Below, piece by piece: positions 2,997 to 49,794 of a stretch of 64,000 nt of DNA. How positions within the stretch are numbered: position 1 is the stretch's first letter; every line of letters begins with the position of its first letter. The position numbers and the translations under genes are program-made. The stretch is taken from contig OY764147.1 of NCBI GenBank assembly GCA_963668115.1, forward strand, positions 2,317,761 through 2,381,760, read 5' to 3'. Source of the DNA: Dehalococcoidia bacterium (GTDB lineage: Bacteria; Chloroflexota; Dehalococcoidia; Plut-88900). A model generated the notes under the pieces. That model was not told the DNA's origin. It saw only the letters and a program-made list of their open reading frames with translations, and did not search any database.

Positions 2997-4166
2997 ATGA
3001 CTGAACCCACCCCCAAGACCCTTCTGGGCCCCGGCCCGAGCAACGTCCACCCCCGAGTCTACGCCTCAATGTCGGGACCCGTGCTTTCCCACATGGACCC
3101 CGACTTCTGGGCCATCATGGACGAGACCGTAGAACTCCTGCGGGAGGTGTTCCAAACGGGCAACGGGCTCACCCTGCCCATCTCGGGGACCGGCTCTGCG
3201 GGGATGGAAGCCGCCCTCTACAACTCCCTGGAGCCCGGCGACACGATCATTGTGGGGGTAGCCGGTTTCTTCGCCTCACGCATCGCCGAAATTGCCGCCC
3301 GGTGCGACGCTAACGTCGTCACCGTTGAGGCCGAATGGGGCAAAGCCGTGACCCCCGCCGCGGTCGAGGAAGCCCTTGCCGCCAACCCCAACACCAAGGT
3401 CGTAGCCTTCGTACACTGCGAAACCTCCACGGGCGTCCTTCAGCCCCTTGGGGAGATTGGGCAACTGGCCCGGTCCCACGGGGCCATGTTCCTGGTTGAT
3501 AGCGTCGCCTCCCTCGGGGGTCAACGGTTGCCCGTGGATGACTTGGGCATCGACATCTGCTACAGCGGGAGCCAGAAGAGCCTCAGTTGCCCGCCGGGCC
3601 TCGCGCCCATCACCATGAGCCCTCAGGCCGTGGAGGCCATGAAGTCCCGCCAGTCCCCATCCCGGAGCTGGTACCTGGACCTTTCCATGCTTGACGAGTA
3701 TTGGATCAGCGCCCGGAAATACCACCACACCGCCCCCGCATCAATGATCTACGCCCTGCGGGAGTCGTTACGCATCCTGGTTGAAGAGGGGCTGGAAAAC
3801 AGCTTCGCCCGACACCAGCTAAACGCCGACGCCCTCCGCGCGGGTGTCGACGCCATGGGCCTGTCCATCGTCGCCGACGAAGATGTCCGCTCCAACACCG
3901 TGAACGGCGTCCGAATGCCCGAAGGCGTCGACGCCAACGCTGTCCGCATGGCCCTGCTCAACGACTACAACATCGAGACGGGTGGAGGGCTCGGGCCCTT
4001 TGCGGGAAAGGTGGTCAGGGTCGGGCTGATGGGCTACTCGTCGCAGGAGACCAACGTGTTGCTGATACTCTCCGCCCTGGGTAGGGTGCTGAACGGGCTG
4101 GAATACGAGGTTGCCGTCTCAGCGGGTGTAGCCGCGGCGAGTCGGGTGTACGCGGGAGCGTCCTAG
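2997..4166 (+). CDS. class-V aminotransferase (serine--glyoxylate / alanine--glyoxylate aminotransferase type)
   Basis: Class-V PLP-enzyme length (389 aa). The lysine motif SGSQKSLSCPPGLAPI is typical of AGXT/SGAT. Confidence 0.8.
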   Translation: MTEPTPKTLLGPGPSNVHPRVYASMSGPVLSHMDPDFWAIMDETVELLREVFQTGNGLTLPISGTGSAGMEAALYNSLEPGDTIIVGVAGFFASRIAEIAARCDANVVTVEAEWGKAVTPAAVEEALAANPNTKVVAFVHCETSTGVLQPLGEIGQLARSHGAMFLVDSVASLGGQRLPVDDLGIDICYSGSQKSLSCPPGLAPITMSPQAVEAMKSRQSPSRSWYLDLSMLDEYWISARKYHHTAPASMIYALRESLRILVEEGLENSFARHQLNADALRAGVDAMGLSIVADEDVRSNTVNGVRMPEGVDANAVRMALLNDYNIETGGGLGPFAGKVVRVGLMGYSSQETNVLLILSALGRVLNGLEYEVAVSAGVAAASRVYAGAS

Positions 4167-5485
4167 CCGGAATCCTCCTCCTGCCTATAGGCCTGGTCCA
4201 GCAGCTCCACTACGTGGTAAGAGCGCGTCGTTTGTCCCTGCTTGCGCAGACCCATATCAAGCTGGAGCATGCACCCGGGGTTGGCCGTGGTCACGACGTC
4301 GGCTTCCGCCGCCGACACATCCCGCATCTTGCTGTCCAGCAACTGCGATGAAAGCTCCGGGTTGACGATGTTGTAGACCCCCGCCGCACCGCAGCACTTG
4401 TCCGAGTTGGGCATTTCGCAGAGCTCCACGCCAGGGATCGAGGTCAAGACCTGGCGCGGCGCCTCCCTGATCCTCTGGGCGTGTACCAGGTGACATGAGT
4501 CCTGGTACGTGACCCGCTTGCTGAACCCCGACTTGGGCGGCGCGAATGGTAGGTCGGCGAGGAATTCGTGAACATCTTTGACTTTGGCGACGAAAGTCTC
4601 TGCTTTGCCTGAGTAACCGGGGTCCTCCGCAAGCAGCTCTTCGTACTCCTTCAGCATTGCCCCACACCCTGCGGCGTTGACGACCACTGTGTCGGCTTCC
4701 GCAAAAGCGTCGATATTCTTACGGGCCATCTCTCGGGCCGAGTCTCGCTCGCCGCTATGCACGTTCAGCGCACCGCAGCAACCCTGCCCACCCGGGATGT
4801 CCACCCGACAGCCGTTCTTGGACAGCACGTTTACCGTCGCCCGGTTCACGGGCCCAAACACTAGGGGCATGATGCACCCGGAAAAAAGGGCCACCGTCTT
4901 CTTTTCAGCCCCCTTTGCCGGTACGCTCTTCGCCTTGCCCCGGGGGTAGGGGCTGAAGGCCAGCTTGGGAAGCATCGACTCCATGTGGGACAGGCGAGTC
5001 GGGAGCAGCTTCAGCACGCGGGACTTCCTCACAAGCCACTGAATACCCGAGGCCTGGTAAAGGGAAAGCATACGGGAAGCCAGACCTAACCTGCCCTGGT
5101 GAGGGAACAGGTGCCTGAAGGCAATGTTCCTGGCCGTCCTTTCGATGAAGGGCCGAGAGGTCTGCGCCTCGATTCTGGCTCGGGTCTCCGTCATCAGGCT
5201 CCCGAAGGGCACCCCCGAGGGACAAGCGGCCTCGCAGGCCCGACATAGCAGGCAAAGCTCCATGTGCTCGACCAGCCGGTCCGTGTACCCGAACCGGCCC
5301 TCCGCTACGGCCTTCATCAGGGCCAGCCGGCCCCGGGGGGACTCGGTCTCCAGGCCCAGCTCCAGGTAGGTCGGGCACTGGTTGAGGCACAGGCCGCAGT
5401 GGACACAGCGGTAGAGTTCCTCCGCCGTGACGCCACCCACCGAAAGGTCCAGCAGGTCCATCACTGACTTTTCAGCTCTCACCAC
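4163..5485 (-). CDS. glcF: glycolate oxidase iron-sulfur subunit GlcF-like (Fe-S oxidoreductase with CCG domains)
   Basis: Two ferredoxin-type motifs (CVHCGLCLNQCP; CLLCRACEAACP) and two cysteine-rich CCG-type repeats (CCGAL..., CCGAAGVYN). Confidence 0.75.
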   Translation of the reverse strand: MVRAEKSVMDLLDLSVGGVTAEELYRCVHCGLCLNQCPTYLELGLETESPRGRLALMKAVAEGRFGYTDRLVEHMELCLLCRACEAACPSGVPFGSLMTETRARIEAQTSRPFIERTARNIAFRHLFPHQGRLGLASRMLSLYQASGIQWLVRKSRVLKLLPTRLSHMESMLPKLAFSPYPRGKAKSVPAKGAEKKTVALFSGCIMPLVFGPVNRATVNVLSKNGCRVDIPGGQGCCGALNVHSGERDSAREMARKNIDAFAEADTVVVNAAGCGAMLKEYEELLAEDPGYSGKAETFVAKVKDVHEFLADLPFAPPKSGFSKRVTYQDSCHLVHAQRIREAPRQVLTSIPGVELCEMPNSDKCCGAAGVYNIVNPELSSQLLDSKMRDVSAAEADVVTTANPGCMLQLDMGLRKQGQTTRSYHVVELLDQAYRQEEDSG

Positions 5486-26387: not shown

Positions 26388-26440
26388 TGGGGGTGGGGCT
26401 AGGGAAGGGGGTGTAGTGCTAGGATGCAGGTGATTATTCA

Positions 26441-26510
26441 GGAGGGATGGATTACCACCTCCGTGGGAATGATCCGCCATAGGCGGACAGGCTCCCCTCG
26501 GGGGTGGGGA
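26441..26510. repeat. hairpin-repeat family copy: GGAGGGATGGATTaCCAC-CTCC-GTGGGAAT palindrome, plus CCGCCataGGCGG and CCCCtcGGGG hairpins
   Basis: Three consecutive short palindromes. The same unit recurs at 26564-26724 and 28258-28356. Confidence 0.6.
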
Positions 26511-26563
26511 GGGGGGACGGGGTTGGAGTGACGGAAGATGGGAAGGGTGGGTTGCGGGGTTGT

Positions 26564-26724
26564 GGGTGAGTGTTTCGGAGGGATGGATTCCCACCTCCGT
26601 GGGAATGACGGATTAAAGGGGCGGGAATGATCCGCCATAGGCGGACAGGCTACCCTCGAGGGTGGGGGCCGCCCTGCCCCGCCCCGCGGGATGGATTCCC
26701 GACTACTCGGGAATGACGGAGGGG
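26564..26724. repeat. hairpin-repeat family, compound copy (two GGATGGATTCC-N-GGAATGAC units, with stems CCCAC/GTGGG and CCCGA/TCGGG)
   Basis: The GGGTGAGTGTTTCGGAGGGATGGATTCCCACCTCCGTGGGAATGACGGA core matches 28258-28304 except for compensatory stem changes. Confidence 0.6.
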
Positions 26725-26820
26725 AGGGGATTTTTGGTTGTATGGTGCGTTTAGAATGTACGGGAGGGGGTGATATGGAAATCAGGGGGAGGGAGAGAAG
26801 TGAAGACGGTTATCAGAGAA

Positions 26821-28233
26821 ATGGGGTGGTTGGCCTTGGTGGTGGGGTTGCTGATTGGGGTTGCGGCCTGCGCCTCTGACTTGGAAACACTCGTCTCCGA
26901 TGTCACGCCTAGCCCTTCTACTAGGGATTCGGAGACCGTCACAGCCCACATCACACCCACAATCCATGCCCTGCCGCAGCCTCCATTCTACGGTGCCGGC
27001 ACCCCATCATTGGATGAGCGCATATACGAATCGGATATCGTAGTCAGAGTTTCCTTATCATCCGTCACCGATGATCTATTGAAATTTAAGGCCATTGAAT
27101 ACCTAAAGGGCTCTGGAGCATCCGAGATCAGCGTCCATGCCTCCACCACTGGACGAAATACCTCCTGGGACGGACGGGAAGCGATACTCTTCCTCACCCT
27201 ACCGAAGAGTCAAGGGACAACAGGTTCCTCAGACAGTTCCTCATCACAGTTCATATTCACAGAATCCCAAGCCGTCAAGCACTATAGTGGTAACCTGTCC
27301 GATGGTTATACCATAGATACCCGGAACCCTGCGTGGCTACCTGCGGAATCTGCCTCTGGTACAACAGGGACTAGCGGTGGTAGTCAGACATTTATTACGG
27401 ATACCCAATCTCCCACCGGTGCTCTGTCTCCAGTGATTTCTCTGACGGATCTTCGTTCCAAGATAGCGTGGCAGGAAGTGAAAGAAGGTGTAGCAGGATA
27501 CGAGGATTGCATCTTGGCGCGCCTAGATCACGAGCAATGGTTCCGAAACTGGGAGACCCATTATGGGCGCGCATGGCCTCTTCATCAATTCAATGCGCGA
27601 GTGAATTCAGGAACGGGCAAGGGAGCAGTTATTAAGGCTTCCGGCAATTACAACTTGAATAAGTACTGGAAAGAGTGGTTAACCGGTATGGATGCAGAAC
27701 TCTTCAGCACTCAGGTCGTCGATAACGATGAGAAGCCCGGCAACGGCTTCAGCAGCAATATTACAACCGCCCGTCCTCTGATTGGCGGAACATACAATTA
27801 TATGTTCCACAGACAATGGCCCGAATACATGCCATGCAACTTTGTCTCTCCTCGTCATCGTCTAGCGTTAATAGTCACCGTCACTGCTCCGACGGGGACT
27901 GTTCACGAAGCCTTCTTCGATCCTGCCTCCACCTCCCTAGGGGTGGGTTTCCGGGGAAGTCAAGGCACACTCTCTCCCGCCTCCTTCACTCACGGGGACG
28001 TCTCATCCTCCATCGTCGGACTCGGGTGGGAGAATGGCAAGGTCATGCTTGCCCTTTCGCCCTACGTGTCCCTTGCGGGCAAGACCTTGGACTTCATCGA
28101 ACTGGATGGGACGGTGGGCCTTAGCCTGAGGTTCGACGATGGTGTGTCGGATGGGGAGTCGGGGACGGTTGTGTGGAAGGTGGATGAGCGGCCGTGGGAG
28201 TCGGGGGATGAGTTGATGATTCGGATTAGGTAG
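26821..28233 (+). CDS. hypothetical lipoprotein. Probable start at M18 of ORF 26770-28233; the gene is AT-richer than its surroundings.
   Basis: Signal peptide with LIGVAAC lipobox. The composition is Ser/Thr/Gly-rich and protein-like. I recognise no functional motif. Confidence 0.5.
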   Translation: MGWLALVVGLLIGVAACASDLETLVSDVTPSPSTRDSETVTAHITPTIHALPQPPFYGAGTPSLDERIYESDIVVRVSLSSVTDDLLKFKAIEYLKGSGASEISVHASTTGRNTSWDGREAILFLTLPKSQGTTGSSDSSSSQFIFTESQAVKHYSGNLSDGYTIDTRNPAWLPAESASGTTGTSGGSQTFITDTQSPTGALSPVISLTDLRSKIAWQEVKEGVAGYEDCILARLDHEQWFRNWETHYGRAWPLHQFNARVNSGTGKGAVIKASGNYNLNKYWKEWLTGMDAELFSTQVVDNDEKPGNGFSSNITTARPLIGGTYNYMFHRQWPEYMPCNFVSPRHRLALIVTVTAPTGTVHEAFFDPASTSLGVGFRGSQGTLSPASFTHGDVSSSIVGLGWENGKVMLALSPYVSLAGKTLDFIELDGTVGLSLRFDDGVSDGESGTVVWKVDERPWESGDELMIRIR

Positions 28234-28257: not shown

Positions 28258-28356
28258 GGGGTGAGTGTTTCGGAAGGATGGATTCCTGCCTCCGCAGGAA
28301 TGACGGAGTGGTCGGGGGTGGGGCGCTGGAGATTCCTCGCGGGGCATCGGAACGGG
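28258..28356. repeat. hairpin-repeat family copy immediately downstream of the lipoprotein gene (stem variant CCTGC/GCAGG)
   Basis: GGTGAGTGTTTCGGAAGGATGGATTCCTGCCTCCGCAGGAATGACGGAG. Both stem arms changed together relative to the 26580 copy. Confidence 0.6.
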
Positions 28357-40952: not shown

Positions 40953-44090
<3,138 letters not shown>

Positions 44091-44138
44091 TGCATTAAGA
44101 CACGCACAGAACGTTCAACTTCTCTATTCGGCACATGG

Positions 44139-44301
44139 CGCGGGGTGGAGCAGTGGTCCGCCACGGGCGGATCGGGCTGGAGCAGTGGTCCGCCGAGGGC
44201 GGATCGGTCTCGTAACCCGCCGCACCCGCGGATCGCAGACATCGCGGGGTGGAGCAGTGGTCCGCCGAGGGCGGATCGGGCTCATAACCCGCCGCAGACA
44301 T
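44139..44301 (+). repeat. three degenerate tandem partial copies of the 5' half of the initiator tRNA-Met (each begins CGCGGGGTGGAGCAGTGG then TCCGCC(G/A)(A/C)GGGCGGATCGG; the third retains the CTCATAA anticodon loop)
   Basis: 18-nt identity to the tRNA 5' end at 44139, about 44183 (partial) and 44243. Each copy carries an inserted palindrome TCCGCCgagGGCGGA. Confidence 0.7.
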
Positions 44302-44376
44302 CGCGGGGTGGAGCAGTGGCAGCTCGTCGGGCTCATAACCCGAAGGTCGTTGGTTCGAATCCAACCCCCGCTACCA
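44302..44376 (+). tRNA. initiator tRNA-Met (CAU anticodon)
   Basis: CGCGGGGTGGAGCAG…TCGGGCTCATAACCCGAAGG…GGTTCGAATCCAACCCCCGCTACCA. Matches the E. coli tRNA-fMet layout, including the three G:C pairs in the anticodon stem and an encoded CCA. Confidence 0.85.
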
Positions 44377-44381
44377 AGACA
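44358..44381 (+). repeat. 24-bp direct repeat, copy 1 (AATCCAACCCCCGCTACCAAGACA, the 3' end of the tRNA-Met); the second copy is at 45208-45231
   Basis: Exact 24-bp identity between the two loci, about 830 bp apart and bracketing the vapBC cassette. This is the att-like signature of an integration at the tRNA 3' end. Confidence 0.8.
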
Positions 44382-44387
44382 GAAAAA

Positions 44388-44420
44388 GGCCCCCGAGATT
44401 TCTCGGGGGCCTTGTCTTTG
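44388..44420 (+). terminator. rho-independent terminator after the tRNA
   Basis: aaaaaGGCCCCCGAGatttCTCGGGGGCCttgtcttt. Confidence 0.6.
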
Positions 44421-44495
44421 CGGCCGGGCAATGTGGTTGCGGGGCCGACCGGATATTGCTTGACCATAAGCTGACGTATGGGTAGTATGGGATAC

Positions 44496-44744
44496 ATGAA
44501 GACCACTATTGACATACACGACGAATTGCTTGCGCGCGCAAAGCGACATGCGCGCAATACAGGCCGACCACTTCGCGCAGTGGTTGAAGACGGTCTTCGG
44601 CGGGCGCTTTCGGCGGGGGATAATCACGAAGGGTACATTCTGCCCGACCATAGCATGGGTCAATCCGGGGGGAGAGACCCCCTGGAAGCGTACTCCTGGC
44701 AGGACCTCCGGGAGATCATCTACGGAGACCTTGAAGGCCGATGA
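44496..44744 (+). CDS. vapB: type II antitoxin, VapB-like (ribbon-helix-helix/CopG type)
   Basis: 82 aa, basic/acidic ([38 protein letters not shown]). Overlaps the downstream PIN gene by 4 bp (ATGA). Confidence 0.65.
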
Positions 44745-45181
44745 TCGCTCTGGATACAAACCTGCTTGTGTATGCGCACCGGCGTGAATCCAGACACCAT
44801 CAGGCCGCCTTTTCGCTGTTACGGAGCCTAGCGGAAGGCAACCATGCGTGGGCCATTCCCTGGCCTTGTTGCTACGAATTTCTCAGCGTTGTCACCAATC
44901 CTCGCATCTGGAGGGACAGCGCCACGAGTCCCGAGCAATCGTGGCGTCAGCTGGCGGCCTGGATGGATTCCCCCTCAATCCGCCTGATAGGGGAGACGGG
45001 GGACTTTCCTGCGATATTGGAGAGCTTTATACGACGCCCCCGCGTTATAGGAGGAGTTGTCCACGATGCGAGGATAGCTGCAATATGCGTGGCCCACGGT
45101 GCGGAAGCTCTGTTGACAAGAGATCGTGACTTCTCACTGTTTCCCGAACTCAAGACCCGGGACCCGATTGCGGAGGGCTAG
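44741..45181 (+). CDS. vapC: type II toxin VapC (PIN-domain ribonuclease)
   Basis: N-terminal [11 protein letters not shown] (first PIN Asp), C-terminal TRDRDF acidic residues. 146 aa. Confidence 0.8.
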
Positions 45182-45207
45182 CGTAAGCGCACCGCATAGA
45201 ACGGTCT

Positions 45208-45231
45208 AATCCAACCCCCGCTACCAAGACA
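45208..45231 (+). repeat. 24-bp direct repeat, copy 2 (duplicate of the tRNA-Met 3' end)
   Basis: Identical to 44358-44381. Confidence 0.8.
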
Positions 45232-45236
45232 TAAAA

Positions 45237-45461
45237 ATGACCAGCCAGTTGGGGGCTTTTGATAAGAGGAGGCAATCTATGTTTAGAATCATTACCGAAA
45301 GCAGTGAAAACCACGACATTTCCATGATCGTATGTAAGACTCCCTCCTTAGACGAGGCTTACCGGGCTTTTAAGGACGCATGCAAGAATCAAAGGGAAGG
45401 GGTAACCGTCATACTGTGTGCCACAATAGCAAGCGATGGCCCAGACGCTCCCAACGCCTAG
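45237..45461 (+). CDS. hypothetical small protein (lower-GC ORF)
   Basis: 74-aa ORF with protein-like composition, followed by a palindromic terminator-like sequence at about 45480-45515. No recognisable motif. Confidence 0.3.
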   Translation: MTSQLGAFDKRRQSMFRIITESSENHDISMIVCKTPSLDEAYRAFKDACKNQREGVTVILCATIASDGPDAPNA

Positions 45462-45557
45462 CTATCAATGCCACGCGGAAAGGCCCCCGACGGCAGGCTG
45501 GTCGCGGGCCTTTTTCTGTCTATTTGTGAGGGATACCGAACCCGCGAGAGGGAATTT

Positions 45558-46838
45558 CTAATCCGTTAGCCAGAGGAAGCGGCGATCCTCCGCACCGTAT
45601 CCGGGCTGGTGTATCAGGAGTAGACCCCGTTCATCCTCTGGTATCTCGAAGCAAACGCTGCCCTCTACCCGGCCTCCAGGGAAGATTTCACGATTGAGCT
45701 CGTCCGGAATGAGACCGCAATCCTCACTAAATGAGGTGTATACCACCCTATTATTTCCAATGAGTTCGAAGTCATAGGCAGAGGATTCGACAGATTGCAA
45801 GGCATCCGAAGGGTTTGTAATTTCTAGCCGAATCATGAAGAAGCGGTTGCCCTCTCCAGGAGGATCGTTGTACCGATTTTCTGCATACACAAGCGACCAT
45901 GCATCCGCTATTGTGCTGACAACACGAATCTGCGTACCATCAGACCCCGTCATGACCTCGCCTTGCGCATATGCGTCGTCCAATGTACCTCCTGGCGGAG
46001 GAACCGGGTCACCAACACTATAGCCGATAAACGAGTCCCCATCACGGTCAATTTCGTAGTGATAGGTCAAGAATACGTCTCCGCCCTGACTCATCTTAGC
46101 CTCGGCCTTGCAACGCAAGAGTTTAGCTGTTCGCTCTACTTCCTCAATCTTGTCGGTATACAATTTCAGGATGCGAGGTGAAAATGAACTCTCATTGTCT
46201 TCTGACAATTCGATTATTTCATCGATGAACCACTCATCATTGCATGTTTGGGAGGAGGCTATCGTTAGCTTCACGGTGATGGTGAAGGTAGCGCGGACTG
46301 TGGGGTTTGAGTCGTCGTTGGCGGATATGGTAACCCTATAATCCTTGGCAGAGGCTTGTGAGCTTATTGTGCCGACCACTTGGCCTGACTGGTATGAGAG
46401 GCCAGGGGGTAGGCCGGAAAGTCTCACGGCTGGAGTGTCCTCTGCATCGGTAACCGTTATATCAAAGGCTGTGATCGTCTCGCCCTGATCGTAGCTCTTG
46501 TTGCCAGGGTTAGTGATTATCGGTCGAGAGTTTGGTATTGGCGTAGGCGTAGGTACAGGTGTTGGGCGGGGTGTAGCAGTGGGTTCGGGGGTAGCAGTAG
46601 GCACGGGTGTAGAGGTAGGGCGTGGCGTTGCAGTGGGATCAGGAGTCTCAGTCGGAGCTAGCGTTGGAGTGGGCGTCTGGGTCGGAGTAGGTACAGCAGC
46701 TTCCGTGGGCGCGGCAGTAGCCACCGAACCAGGCGTTTCAGACGCACACCCGAACACCATTACCAGAATGGCAATCAGCGTTGCCGAGATGCAAAAGAGC
46801 TTGATGGTGGAGCGGAACGGGATTCCGGCTGTGTGCAT
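45558..46838 (-). CDS. lipoprotein with a long Pro/Thr-rich repetitive linker and a C-terminal DUF4352-like beta domain
   Basis: Lipobox MVFGCAS. TPTPT/ATPEPTATPRPT repeats. C-terminal region with the RFFMIRLEITN…GSVCFEIPED pattern. Confidence 0.55.
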   Translation of the reverse strand: MHTAGIPFRSTIKLFCISATLIAILVMVFGCASETPGSVATAAPTEAAVPTPTQTPTPTLAPTETPDPTATPRPTSTPVPTATPEPTATPRPTPVPTPTPIPNSRPIITNPGNKSYDQGETITAFDITVTDAEDTPAVRLSGLPPGLSYQSGQVVGTISSQASAKDYRVTISANDDSNPTVRATFTITVKLTIASSQTCNDEWFIDEIIELSEDNESSFSPRILKLYTDKIEEVERTAKLLRCKAEAKMSQGGDVFLTYHYEIDRDGDSFIGYSVGDPVPPPGGTLDDAYAQGEVMTGSDGTQIRVVSTIADAWSLVYAENRYNDPPGEGNRFFMIRLEITNPSDALQSVESSAYDFELIGNNRVVYTSFSEDCGLIPDELNREIFPGGRVEGSVCFEIPEDERGLLLIHQPGYGAEDRRFLWLTD

Positions 46839-47107
46839 GGCAGGCCGCCTTTGCAGGACAGGTTATTGTCCGGCCCGCTAAAGGGGATGGCCTGTCGGAA
46901 ACGCAGTGTCCCAACAAGGTGCCCCCTCGCGACGGGCAGGGTTTCCTGCTAGAGACACCGTTGCCAGCACTGGGGTCACAAGGGGGCATGGGAGAAGCCC
47001 ATGCCTATACACCCTGGCACGGACGGTGCCCGGTGTCTGTCGCAGGGCGGAATCTAGCACAAACGCCTTTGCGTGTCGATACCCGGCAACCTCCCACCTG
47101 TCCAATA

Positions 47108-47160
47108 CAAAAAGCGAGGAGCGGACGCCTTGGACGTCCGCTCCTCGCCTACTTTTTTCT
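47108..47160. terminator. bidirectional rho-independent terminator downstream of marR
   Basis: aaaaaGCGAGGAGCGGACGccttggaCGTCCGCTCCTCGCctactttttt. Confidence 0.55.
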
Positions 47161-47200
47161 TGTGGGGGTGGGTGACTGTTACGCCGTCAATGCGCCCGCA

Positions 47201-47662
47201 TTACTCGCTCTCCGTCTCCTCCCCGGCCTCCGCATTCGCAGCTATCTTCTGTATCGTGCGCATGAATACCAGCTTTTCCTTCTCGGACACTCCCCTCAGG
47301 AGCAGGGCGTTGACGGCCTGCAACCGCCGGCCCAGCTCGGGCATGAGGTCAAGCCCTTCCTTGGTCAGGCTCAGCCTCACCACCCGCCGGTCGCTCCGCA
47401 GTCGCCGCCTTCGGATCAGGCCCTTTTTAACCAGCTCGTCTACGTTTCTGCTTATGGAAGCGGAGTCGATAGGTACAATCTGCATCAACCCCGTAACGGT
47501 GTTGGCCTGTTGTTGAAAGCAGGCCTCCAGGATGCTCCATTGCAGGGCCGTCAACTCGAAGGGCGCCAGTCTCTCCTCCACCAGCTTGGAATACGCGGAT
47601 ACCACCGTGGCCGCCAGGGGACCCAGGGGTGCGAAGGGAATCGGGATCGAGCCGGGATTCAT
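47201..47662 (-). CDS. MarR-family transcriptional regulator
   Basis: wHTH region TALQWSILEACFQQQANTVTGLMQIVPIDSASISRNVDELVKKGLIRRRRLRSDRRVVRLSLTKEG. Confidence 0.8.
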   Translation of the reverse strand: MNPGSIPIPFAPLGPLAATVVSAYSKLVEERLAPFELTALQWSILEACFQQQANTVTGLMQIVPIDSASISRNVDELVKKGLIRRRRLRSDRRVVRLSLTKEGLDLMPELGRRLQAVNALLLRGVSEKEKLVFMRTIQKIAANAEAGEETESE

Positions 47663-47821: not shown

Positions 47822-48475
47822 ATGACCACCCCCGACACCCGAGACGTCGAAGAACGCTACCAGCGCTTCGCCGCCACCTACGACAACGCCATGAGCTGGC
47901 TGGACGGCGTCCGGGACGCCTCCTTCGAACACCTCGCCCTTAAGCCTGGGGAATCGGTGCTCGACCTCGGGTGCGGCACCGGCATCAGCTTCGAACGGCT
48001 TCACCGGGACGTGGGCCCGGAGGGTCGCATCATCGGCTTGGAGCTAAGCTCCGAGATGCTGGAGTTAGCCCGGCAAAGGGTCGAGCTCAACGGCTGGGAC
48101 AACGTTACCCTCATCGAGGGTGATGCCAGCACCGTCGACATCCCCGGCCCCGTCGACGCCGTACTTGCCTTCTTCGTGCCCGAGATTCTCTATTTGCCCC
48201 CCGCCGTTCGCCGCGCCCTGGACTCGCTATCGCCCGGCGGCAGACTTGTGGCCTCCGGCGTGAAGCACGCCCGCGGGCCTTTGGGCCCCATCTTCAATAT
48301 CTATTTTCAAGCGAGATGGAGGACCTGGCGATGGGTGGGCATGAAGCGCGTCGTCAAGAGGATGTTCGGCAGGGGCCAGCCGTATGACACCCTGCAAGCC
48401 GCCGCCTCCAACCTGGAGCTATGGGACTATTTTTACGGCTGTGTCTACGTAGCACGGGCAACGAGGGACGGCTAG
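47822..48475 (+). CDS. class I SAM-dependent methyltransferase
   Basis: Motif I VLDLGCGTG, with the acidic and post-II motifs. Confidence 0.8.
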   Translation: MTTPDTRDVEERYQRFAATYDNAMSWLDGVRDASFEHLALKPGESVLDLGCGTGISFERLHRDVGPEGRIIGLELSSEMLELARQRVELNGWDNVTLIEGDASTVDIPGPVDAVLAFFVPEILYLPPAVRRALDSLSPGGRLVASGVKHARGPLGPIFNIYFQARWRTWRWVGMKRVVKRMFGRGQPYDTLQAAASNLELWDYFYGCVYVARATRDG

Positions 48476-49141: not shown

Positions 49142-49525
49142 CTACACCCGGAACCCGAGCGCCCTCGCAACCTCTCCCTGCCGACGGTCCAGGGTTACGA
49201 ATGTCAACTCTTCGGGAAACGGCGTCAAATACAGAGCTGTAGCCAGGTGCCATAAGTCAGCGCCCTTTACGTAGCCAGCTTCTACCACCTTTGAGATTTC
49301 CAGGGTTAACGGACGGTCAGGGAACAGCCAACTGATATCGGTCAGGAGGTCGGGATCAAAGGCTTCAGCATTCCTTGAATATGCAGCTCGTACTTCTGCT
49401 TCCAATAGGTTCGAAGACCAGACCTCTGAAAACTCGGACAGGCGACGTGATAATCCCAGAGCTCCAAATTCGTCAAATGCGATCGCTATGATCGCAGACG
49501 AGTCGACGTAGGCAATGGCCATCAA
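49142..49525 (-). CDS. vapC: type II toxin, PIN-domain VapC
   Basis: N-terminal AYVDSSAIIAIA (Asp). 127 aa. Overlaps the upstream antitoxin by 4 bp. Confidence 0.75.
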   Translation of the reverse strand: MMAIAYVDSSAIIAIAFDEFGALGLSRRLSEFSEVWSSNLLEAEVRAAYSRNAEAFDPDLLTDISWLFPDRPLTLEISKVVEAGYVKGADLWHLATALYLTPFPEELTFVTLDRRQGEVARALGFRV

Positions 49526-49794
49526 TCACGCTCAGCCAGAAACCTCTCTAAAGCGCCGGGCACAGGCTTCCCTACCTTAAACGTTTTCCACGGTCCCTTC
49601 GCGCGGACGACGACCCCTCGCAACTCTAAATCGCGAATCCTCTCTTCCAAGGTCTGTGCCGGCGTTTCAACCGGCCGGATCTCCGCAACCGGCTCTCCTC
49701 GGTAAGACACAGTTACCGTTTTCCCCTCCCTTACTTGGCGCAGCACCTCGGAGAATTTGGCTTTGGCTTCGTAGGTTGTATATGTGATTCCCAT
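49522..49794 (-). CDS. type II antitoxin, Phd/YefM family
   Basis: 90 aa. N-terminal ITYTTYEAKAKFSEVLRQVREGKTVTVSYRGEPVAEI is the Phd/YefM fold signature. Confidence 0.7.
   Translation of the reverse strand: MGITYTTYEAKAKFSEVLRQVREGKTVTVSYRGEPVAEIRPVETPAQTLEERIRDLELRGVVVRAKGPWKTFKVGKPVPGALERFLAERD

Follow-up and report, generated by a model that had tools for sequence, protein, structure and literature searches.

The locus described here lies in a 64,000-nucleotide stretch of a Dehalococcoidia bacterium genome (contig OY764147.1 of assembly GCA_963668115.1), hereafter the window. It consists of an initiator tRNA gene (tRNA-fMet) behind a 23S rRNA gene, three truncated copies of that tRNA directly upstream (here called units or mimics), and a small vapBC toxin–antitoxin (TA) cassette directly downstream. 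Both flanks of the tRNA had been pointed out in a preliminary description of the sequence. The features are given below with window coordinates and strand; loci in other genomes are designated by L numbers, and open reading frames by ORF.

40954-44092, + strand: 23S rRNA gene, full length (Rfam LSU_rRNA_bacteria, 2695 bits)
44093-44138, + strand: native 23S-tRNA spacer, ending at the point where the tRNA starts in the mimic-free relative L153 (sequence comparison)
44139-44172, + strand: mimic copy 1, with 5' strand CGCGGGGTGGAGCAGTGG and hairpin TCCGCC-ACG-GGCGGA
44173-44242, + strand: mimic copy 2, with hairpin TCCGCC-GAG-GGCGGA, degenerate anticodon arm TCGGTCTCGTAACCCG and a 23-nt tail
44243-44301, + strand: mimic copy 3, the intact unit, with tRNA positions 1-18, hairpin, TCGGGCTCATAACCCG and tail CCGCAGACAT
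44302-44376, + strand: intact initiator tRNA-fMet with anticodon CAU (ARAGORN tRNA-Met(CAT); Rfam tRNA, 65 bits, 44302-44373)
44358-44381, + strand: left 24-nt repeat, attL-like, from the T-loop to the tRNA 3' end plus 5 nt
44386-44413, unstranded: 12-bp GC hairpin, predicted terminator of the 23S-tRNA unit, homologous to the terminator of relatives
44460-44488, + strand: promoter-like site (TTGACC, 17 nt, TAGTAT; consensus match only), just 5' of the vapB ATG at 44496
44478-44744, + strand: vapB-like antitoxin ORF, 88 aa, likely start ATG 44496, with a 4-nt overlap with vapC
44741-45181, + strand: vapC PIN-domain toxin ORF (PF01850, 3e-9; TIGR00028, 87.2 bits, cutoff 73.6)
45208-45231, + strand: right 24-nt repeat, attR-like, interpreted as the original tRNA 3' end in displaced position; a decayed native terminator runs on to ~45270

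From its gene order, the locus is the end of an unlinked 23S rRNA–tRNA-fMet unit, predicted to be transcribed as one and separate from the 16S and 5S genes, for which no Rfam match was obtained anywhere in the 64-kb window. The order 23S, tRNA-fMet, terminator was found in at least 14 Dehalococcoidia/Chloroflexota loci. A tRNA-fMet and terminator placed 35-180 nt past the 23S gene were noted in the window (40954-44420) and in L050, L060, L064, L081, L084, L085, L090, L094, L099, L111, and L120. The intact tRNA at 44302-44376 carries the marks of an initiator, with C1 mismatched to U72 and an anticodon stem closed by three G:C pairs (read from the sequence), and among the matches listed its sequence is identical in L065, L066, L071, L079, L081, L099, and L117. 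The 23S end led to the relative L079, with 98.7% identity over 593 nt, and the nearest relatives place the genome in the class Dehalococcoidia of the Chloroflexota.

Upstream of the tRNA, three partial 5' copies with palindromes in the D region were present as the preliminary description had stated (TCCGCCACGGGCGGA at 44157-44171; TCCGCCGAGGGCGGA at both 44189-44203 and 44261-44275). In all three, the palindrome (TCCGCC-NNN-GGCGGA) comes after a repeat of the first 18 nt of the tRNA. One detail was corrected: the anticodon arm of copy 1 is deleted and this copy is fused to copy 2, giving a 32-nt period. Copy 2 scored 63 bits with covariance model R1 (44171-44221) and has a mutated anticodon loop, CTCGTAA. 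Copy 3 scored 76.8 bits with R1, and its loop CTCATAA bears out the earlier remark that one copy retains the CAU anticodon loop; its tail CCGCAGACAT resembles the leader. A 27-nt segment that includes the leader, CGCAGACAT followed by CGCGGGGTGGAGCAGTGG, is 100% identical before copy 3 and before the real tRNA, which suggests that the unit is a tandem duplication of the leader together with tRNA positions 1 to ~43. The units lack a complete cloverleaf with its T arm, 3' acceptor strand, and CCA, and no tRNA was reported at 44139-44301 by ARAGORN or by Rfam at E <=10. Likewise, no Rfam 15 family matched 44093-44301 at E <=10, and no Rfam family matched the mimic regions of 10 other loci at E <=1.

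When hairpin pairs were counted directly across units, it was observed that all 17 hairpins close with U:A, C:G, and C:G, while each of the next three pairs takes at least three Watson-Crick combinations. In an eight-sequence alignment, the hairpin helix was 100% paired, with three pairs changing on both sides, and none of 500 shuffles matched the covariation score. Folding predicted a rod in all six units of both variants (-22.6 to -32.3 kcal/mol, z -2.6 to -3.7; copy 3, -32.3 kcal/mol, z = -3.2), and the RNAalifold consensus gave the same rod. In this predicted structure, helix P1 joins the G-run of the acceptor 5' strand to a C-run in the initiator-specific anticodon stem and the tail, helix P2 is formed by the D-stem GAGC and G31-C34 (GCUC), and the GC hairpin closed by UCC/GGA is the cap (P3). 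Between the window and L079, a G2:C pair of P1 is replaced by A2:U with pairing kept. A closing helix of the 5' strand with the tail has one compensatory change between the window and L079, and its register slips in the G and C runs. Covariation supports the apical hairpin alone; the bases of P1 and P2 derive from the tRNA and do not vary, so that covariation speaks neither for nor against these two helices. The predicted rod does not expose the anticodon loop, whose CUC is buried in a helix.

Comparison of 19 units with their cognate tRNAs showed near-perfect agreement over positions 27-40 and mismatches at positions 41, 42, and 43 in 5, 10, and 12 of the 19, respectively. This puts the breakpoint at a constant position within the 3' strand of the anticodon stem. 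By eye, the 3' end of each unit tail resembles the native leader. Derivation of the hairpin from the arms of the anticodon stem was considered and rejected, as it fits the TCCCGA/TCGGGA hairpins but not the TCCGCC/GGCGGA ones.

Among close relatives, the copy number of the unit varies: three in the window, one each in L079 and L154, a 5'-truncated remnant in L155, and none in L153, L156, L157, and L158. The unit hairpin of L079 and L154 is TCCGCT-TGA-GGCGGA, in which a C to T change leaves a G-U pair. A diverged unit with the hairpin GTCCCG-CCACGT-CGGGAC occurs in a distant SAR202 metagenome-assembled genome (MAG; L039 = L124). The mimic is found without the cassette in L154 and the cassette without the mimic in L158; because they occur in all combinations among relatives, the two are independent. 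With the covariance model, units scored 50-77 bits against ~45 bits for real tRNAs, and among the species-level matches listed units were found only in L079 and, weakly, in L039, which characterizes the unit as rare but recurrent.

Metagenomes were scanned for initiator 5' strands preceded, at a distance of 10-40 nt, by an initiator anticodon arm, and 32 loci were returned. Read singly, these comprised ~15 distinct hairpin-bearing designs and 4 designs with an intact D arm (~19 in all), the remainder being back-to-back complete tRNAs (L135/L142), an internal fragment (L151), and two likely chance matches. The general plan is a leader plus tRNA positions 1 to ~41-43 without a T arm, in which the D region is usually a GC hairpin closed by UCC/GGA. 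The hairpin either follows GGAGCAGTGG and replaces the 3' half of the D arm, or follows GGAG and is then followed by GTAGCTCG; units with an intact D arm and no hairpin were seen in L122, L133, and L140. Units stand head to tail, 10-40 nt apart, in arrays of 2 to at least 4 in L125, L127, L138, and L146, and some L127 copies have a mutated or deleted anticodon arm. In each case the unit copies the tRNA of its own locus, and the tRNA-fMet genes of the carriers differ (T stems GTTGG, GTAGG, GGGGG, GCAGG, and others). The units follow 23S or 5S genes in L121, L125, L127, and L130 and sigma-70-like promoters in L138 and L152; the promoters before the units of L126, L128, L129, and L123 we take to be of Bacteroidota type (TAnnTTTG motifs). 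No units were found in viral contigs, and literature searches returned no description of such truncated initiator-tRNA units. Overall, the units form a real, recurrent, and apparently undescribed architecture.

Some of the scanned loci show further variants. In L128, L129, and L148, which are AT-rich and look Bacteroidota-like, the D region of the unit holds an insertion of ~100 nt with two long hairpins by eye, the first again closed by TCC...GGA. The fragment in L151 (~100-160) runs from the anticodon arm to the T-loop and lies upstream of tRNA-fMet, and in L135 and L142 two complete initiator tRNA genes abut with no spacer.

On the downstream side, the exact recurrence of the 24 nt at the tRNA 3' end that had been reported for 45208-45231 was reproduced: AATCCAACCCCCGCTACCAAGACA occurs twice in 64 kb (44358-44381 and 45208-45231), with 0 occurrences expected from shuffles, and similarity around the pair reaches 38 nt at 89%. 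The enclosed segment measures 826 bp and not 830 bp as first given, and the earlier account of its content stands, namely a terminator and a vapB-vapC pair; a promoter-like site precedes the two ORFs. It was also correct that no integrase remains: the 826 bp encode vapB and vapC and no recombinase, and the adjoining window ORFs that were run against Pfam are DUF4352 and MarR. The Pfam tables of syntenic relatives contained no tyrosine or serine recombinase, and one rve-type transposase lies upstream of the L155 23S gene.

The vapB-like ORF has weak Pfam matches to VapB_antitoxin (21 bits, cutoff 23.4) and to DUF6364, and accompanies the PIN gene every time in L173-L182. The closest solved structure to the window VapC is that of Mycobacterium tuberculosis VapC43 (7vwo, 1.7e-13), and the translation shows the acidic residues D5, E46, D109, and D128/D130. 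The pair is thus classified from sequence as a type II VapBC module, with a VapC-family PIN toxin and a directly upstream, translationally coupled antitoxin gene. It resembles other type II VapBC systems in the 4-nt overlap of a small antitoxin gene with a PIN toxin, in the TIGR00028 score above cutoff, and in the acidic residues; it departs from the typical case in the weakness of the VapB/DUF6364 matches and in being a very widespread and conserved module. Some VapBC PIN-domain RNases cleave tRNA-fMet in the anticodon stem-loop (PMC4705866). The VapC search returned 3342 homologs at E <=1e-20, many at 75-96% identity, which suggests that the module is highly mobile, and the vapBC coding block alone (44477-45168) has copies of 74-79% nucleotide identity in unrelated neighbourhoods without any tRNA. 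The TAGTAT -10-like element ends at 44488, 7 nt 5' of the vapB ATG at 44496; given this distance, the vapBC mRNA may lack a leader, and the true start probably lies downstream of the annotated one at 44478. In L176-L182 (~3195-5396), a vapBC pair with a VapC 86% identical to that of the window stands between two Oxidored_molyb ORFs (71-93 aa and 189-206 aa) and looks as if it had been inserted into an Oxidored_molyb gene.

Orthologous loci were located through the 23S end, homologs of the methyltransferase at 47822, and homologs of VapC. The comparison with relatives that the preliminary description had proposed revealed an empty site, the same cassette, or a different PIN cassette, and contents differ even where synteny holds on either side of the site. 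The site is empty in L155 and L156 (tRNA, terminator, methyltransferase), holds DUF4352 only in L153 and L157, and holds two hypothetical genes but no cassette in L154. In L079 and L158, a different cassette on the other strand, with a PIN gene and a MazE/PrlF-type (AbrB-type) antitoxin, is closed by a 72-nt exact repeat running from the anticodon loop through the terminator. The cassette of the window recurs in L173/L174 (VapC 96% identical) with the same junction, ...GCATAGAACGnCCn joined to AATCCAACC; beyond it, the terminator is intact, and another cassette and a third copy of the tRNA 3' end come next. The flank of the right repeat in the window aligns with the native terminator of the empty-site relative L153 down to the trailing TTTTGAT, as expected for a displaced original tRNA 3' end. 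Within L173 (1-2300), the three tRNA 3' copies (the tRNA, ~944, and ~2249-2300) enclose two cassettes, and the contig breaks inside the tRNA 5' part.

A scan with the 19-nt tRNA 3' end in one genome per species yielded at least 120 loci, mostly from Dehalococcoidia and other Chloroflexota. Among the matches listed, ~25 of ~126 to this core were fragments without the tRNA 5' half, and these partial 3' copies begin at the anticodon loop or in the T arm. In at least five Dehalococcoidia loci, a direct partial copy lies 0.4-2.7 kb past the tRNA, and two partial copies 0.5 kb apart are present in a sixth, L098. The segments enclosed in these six loci carry 1-3 genes and no integrase; the gene types are membrane proteins, L25 with a flavoprotein, MaoC, a major facilitator superfamily (MFS) transporter with a HicB-like protein, and a PIN toxin with its antitoxin. 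A tyrosine integrase lies 190 nt from one partial copy in a Verrucomicrobiota MAG (L062), and integrases adjoin tRNA-fMet in L133 and L134. Not every partial 3' copy marks a recognizable island, since some neighbouring upstream ORFs (L005, L087, L093) look like housekeeping genes, as judged from their translations. In viral contigs, matches to the 19-nt core were phage tRNA-Met genes, not attP sites. An ~8.4-kb island at the tRNA-fMet of a Chloroflexia MAG (from the tRNA in L077 to the partial copy in L082) has a gene with a Shedu SduA C-terminal domain adjoining its distal repeat.

These comparisons support the view that the tRNA-fMet 3' end is an insertion hotspot and that the 24-nt pair behaves like attL/attR. 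The hotspot and the att-like pair claimed at the outset are upheld by the varying contents of relatives; the sequences show the footprint of the insertion and its polymorphism, whereas the enzyme we only infer, because no integrase is present at the locus. By this account, a segment that brought along a tRNA 3' end of its own together with a terminator and the vapBC pair was inserted in the T-loop region, displacing the original tRNA 3' end to 45208-45231. If the remaining cassette can move at all, it would need an integrase acting in trans, and the attP of a tyrosine or serine recombinase serving the site would carry AATCCAACCCCCGCTACCA. The absence of an integrase weighs against this account of the cassette, as does the homology of the left copy's terminator to the native one, which makes entry by recombination with a relative's DNA possible.

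By its predicted gene content, the cassette is an integrase-less, att-flanked element that fits a cis-mobilizable element (CIME) and not an autonomous island; the hotspot and the vapBC cassette in it belong to an ordinary type of feature that is well understood. Among described systems, the nearest is that of the ssrA islands of Dehalococcoides, which are arranged in tandem, have 20-bp direct repeats, are inserted in the T-loop, and include some units without an integration module (PMC3146451). The present locus shares with ssrA islands and CIMEs a distal boundary marked by a direct repeat of a small stable RNA's 3' end, T-loop insertion, cassettes that accrete in tandem (three copies in L173), contents that vary between relatives, and att sites without an integrase. 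It differs in that the cassette is only ~0.8 kb long and contains only a terminator and a TA pair with no integrase, in that the left copy brings a native-like terminator, and in that the target is the tRNA-fMet ending a 23S unit.

The units upstream have looser parallels. Like the tRNA gene fragments and pseudo-tRNAs left by mobile elements (PMC9897764), the partial copies adjoin the intact gene. Tandem initiator tRNA genes, known from E. coli metZWV, are present in L135/L142 as well. Unlike the fragments left by mobile elements, the units are 5' parts, lie upstream, and end constantly at 41-43, and they have a remodelled D region with a covarying hairpin in a design that recurs in unrelated lineages. 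Plant mitochondrial t-elements are tRNA-like processing elements in longer transcripts, and the E. coli tRNA-transcript spacer 3'ETS-leuZ acts as an RNA sponge. MALAT1 mascRNA is likewise a tRNA-like element of a longer transcript (PMC8457004). With t-elements, mascRNA, and 3'ETS-leuZ the units share the character of a tRNA-derived or tRNA-linked structured precursor segment, which tRNA-processing enzymes would release; however, t-elements and mascRNA keep the acceptor/T-arm module needed by RNase P and RNase Z, whereas the units keep the opposite part of the tRNA.

That two independent events took place around the tRNA, a cassette insertion downstream and a tandem partial duplication upstream, is the account that we favour, at about even odds. 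Upstream, the leader with tRNA positions 1 to ~41-43 would have been duplicated in tandem and later raised to three units by slippage or unequal crossing-over; slippage, one of the early suggestions, is borne out in so far as the array looks like a tandem duplication of the leader and tRNA positions 1 to ~43. The units would share a transcript with the 23S rRNA and the tRNA and would presumably be discarded along with the leader upon cleavage of the tRNA 5' end by RNase P. In a self-paired, hairpin-capped unit, the spare 5' strand would be prevented from competing for the acceptor 3' strand that the essential tRNA needs. Without a trans-acting function, such units would arise, amplify, decay, and be lost. 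Self-pairing as the reason why these fragments are tolerated is the most likely single reading, held with a confidence at or slightly short of the midpoint. A tolerated by-product would explain the constant breakpoint, the patchy distribution, the degenerate upstream copies, and the choice of an initiator tRNA with a G-run and a C-run as the carrier.

Several points weigh against this reading. It leaves the universal UCC/GGA closure unexplained; a UCC...GGA closure shared at the same place by differing tRNA-fMet genes is hard to obtain from independent neutral events and is suggestive of some particular constraint or mutational route. The expansion into arrays of 3-5 units might mean that a higher dose is beneficial. 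In addition, the P1/P2 rod is an energy prediction, all evidence is computational, and all sequences come from metagenome assemblies.

The universal UCC/GGA closure is also the main argument for two rival readings, a dispersed palindrome family, taken up below, and a structured RNA with a function of its own within the tRNA-fMet precursor. In the latter case, selection would maintain the units as initiator-tRNA mimics acting in cis or in trans, which we consider a tentative, distinctly weaker candidate. Possible roles would be a decoy or sponge for VapC-type anticodon nucleases, for methionyl-tRNA synthetase (MetRS), or for initiation factor 3 (IF3) with the 30S P site, or the control of processing, stability, or maturation; 3'ETS-leuZ is a precedent for a sponge of this kind. 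The ~19 distinct lineages that share the one architecture differ in their tRNA-fMet sequences, and the hairpin covaries and has invariant closing pairs. The units have held on to the 5' strand, the anticodon loop, and the three G:C pairs specific to initiators, and the tandem copies in arrays of 2 to at least 4 units (L127, L146, L125, L138) would raise the dose. The decoy idea is attractive because some VapC toxins cut tRNA-fMet (PMC4705866) and because, in this lineage, the tRNA has gained two different VapC cassettes as neighbours. However, the units are patchy even in close relatives (L155 has a decayed remnant, and L153 and L156-L158 have no unit), and copies 1-2 of the window and some L127 copies keep a perfect hairpin next to a mutated or deleted anticodon arm. 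The predicted folds also bury the anticodon-loop CUC, no PIN gene was found beside mimic-bearing tRNAs outside this lineage among the downstream ORFs annotated, and viral contigs yielded no units. The broader claim that the units form an undescribed, widespread class of initiator-tRNA-derived leader/spacer RNA, retaining the UCC/GGA hairpin and the initiator anticodon region and amplified under selection, appears equally doubtful.

Other origins are less probable. The hairpin could be a copy of a dispersed repetitive extragenic palindromic (REP)-like or mobile palindrome inserted into one of two tandem tRNA-fMet copies, since the stem TCCGCC-NNN-GGCGGA recurs twice more in the window (26473 and 26631, in a repeat-rich intergenic region), TCCCGA...TCGGGA hairpins occur outside the mimic (window 26697 and the L130 spacer), and perfect 6-bp hairpins closed by TCC...GGA are enriched in the 64-kb window (10 against 1.4 expected, with a maximum of 6 in 50 shuffles) while perfect hairpins as a whole are at chance level (63 against 61). 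This origin is improbable: REP families are usually specific to a species or genus, whereas the UCC/GGA closure crosses lineages whose base composition and tRNA-fMet genes differ, a few mimics (L122, L133, L140) lack the hairpin and keep the D arm intact, and the constant end of tRNA homology at 41-43 is left unexplained. No RAYT or transposase gene was seen, though no search was aimed at them. Slightly less probable still are scars of repeated integrase-mediated integration and excision, the origin first suggested for the copies. The tRNA-fMet is clearly an integration target, att sites in tRNA genes fall into sublocation classes that include an anticodon-loop type, and the breakpoint, located where the anticodon stem ends, falls on the edge of such an att core. 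Integration, however, duplicates 3' parts downstream, and only such 3' fragments were seen: among the matches listed, none of 92 full tRNA-fMet loci had an element-separated 5' fragment. The units stand only 10-40 nt apart, head to tail, mimic and cassette are independent in L154 and L158, the D-region hairpin finds no explanation, and the mimic recurs in unrelated lineages, so that this suggestion was not upheld. An assembly artefact had been raised as well; its source would be a repeated region, such as the end of an rRNA operon or multi-copy tRNA genes. All data are metagenome-assembled, and the break of the L173 contig inside the tRNA 5' part indicates a region that is hard to assemble. 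Nevertheless, an artefact is highly improbable: independent assemblies carry the element with substitutions of their own (L079, L154, the L155 remnant, L039 = L124, and many unrelated metagenomes), and the units of the window differ from one another (loop ACG against GAG, a mutated anticodon loop, a 23-nt tail), unlike collapsed or duplicated reads.

The downstream half of the locus adds the tRNA-fMet at the end of the 23S unit to the plasticity hotspots of Dehalococcoidia, a place where minimal att-flanked TA cassettes accrete. The upstream half presents an essential, usually single-copy initiator tRNA gene that repeatedly gains self-folding copies of its own first two thirds. If the units are only a tolerated duplication, RNA folding constraints would filter which gene fragments persist beside an essential RNA gene, and annotators would be cautioned about pseudo-tRNA arrays. 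If they are functional, they would represent a new class of tRNA-derived regulatory or decoy RNA linked to translation initiation.

Beyond the right repeat, the remaining features of the region are as follows.

45479-45521, unstranded: second terminator-like hairpin, the 3' part of which is an inverted copy of the tRNA downstream flank
45558-47662, - strand: rest of the variable region, with a DUF4352 protein (45558-46838) and a MarR regulator (47201-47662) by Pfam
47822-48475, + strand: methyltransferase dependent on S-adenosylmethionine (SAM), the first conserved gene past the hotspot and the anchor for orthologous loci

The inverted copy is 20 nt long (45502-45521 against 44377-44396, 95% complementary) and lies in the terminator before the convergent DUF4352 gene; the predicted terminator region is duplicated in both orientations. 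A 74-aa ORF at 45237-45461, which starts in the decayed terminator past the right repeat and has no Pfam or NCBIfam match, is probably not a gene. The presence of the DUF4352 and MarR genes varies among relatives (synteny tables). Farther downstream, a second TA pair (127-aa and 90-aa ORFs, 49142-49794, - strand) matches by synteny the PIN and PhdYeFM genes of L153, L154, and L155, its place being conserved, unlike that of the tRNA cassette.

A dispersed G-rich repeat family occupies 26409-26729 and 28262-28310 of the window and flanks the gene at 26770-28233. Its unit, ...GGATGGATTCCnnn-CTCC-nnnGGAATGACGGA..., shows compensatory hairpin changes (CAC/GTG, CGA/TCG, TGC/GCA). The family has no Rfam match at the gathering threshold and could be a REP-like element or a small RNA family; two of its copies also carry TCCGCC-ATA-GGCGGA.

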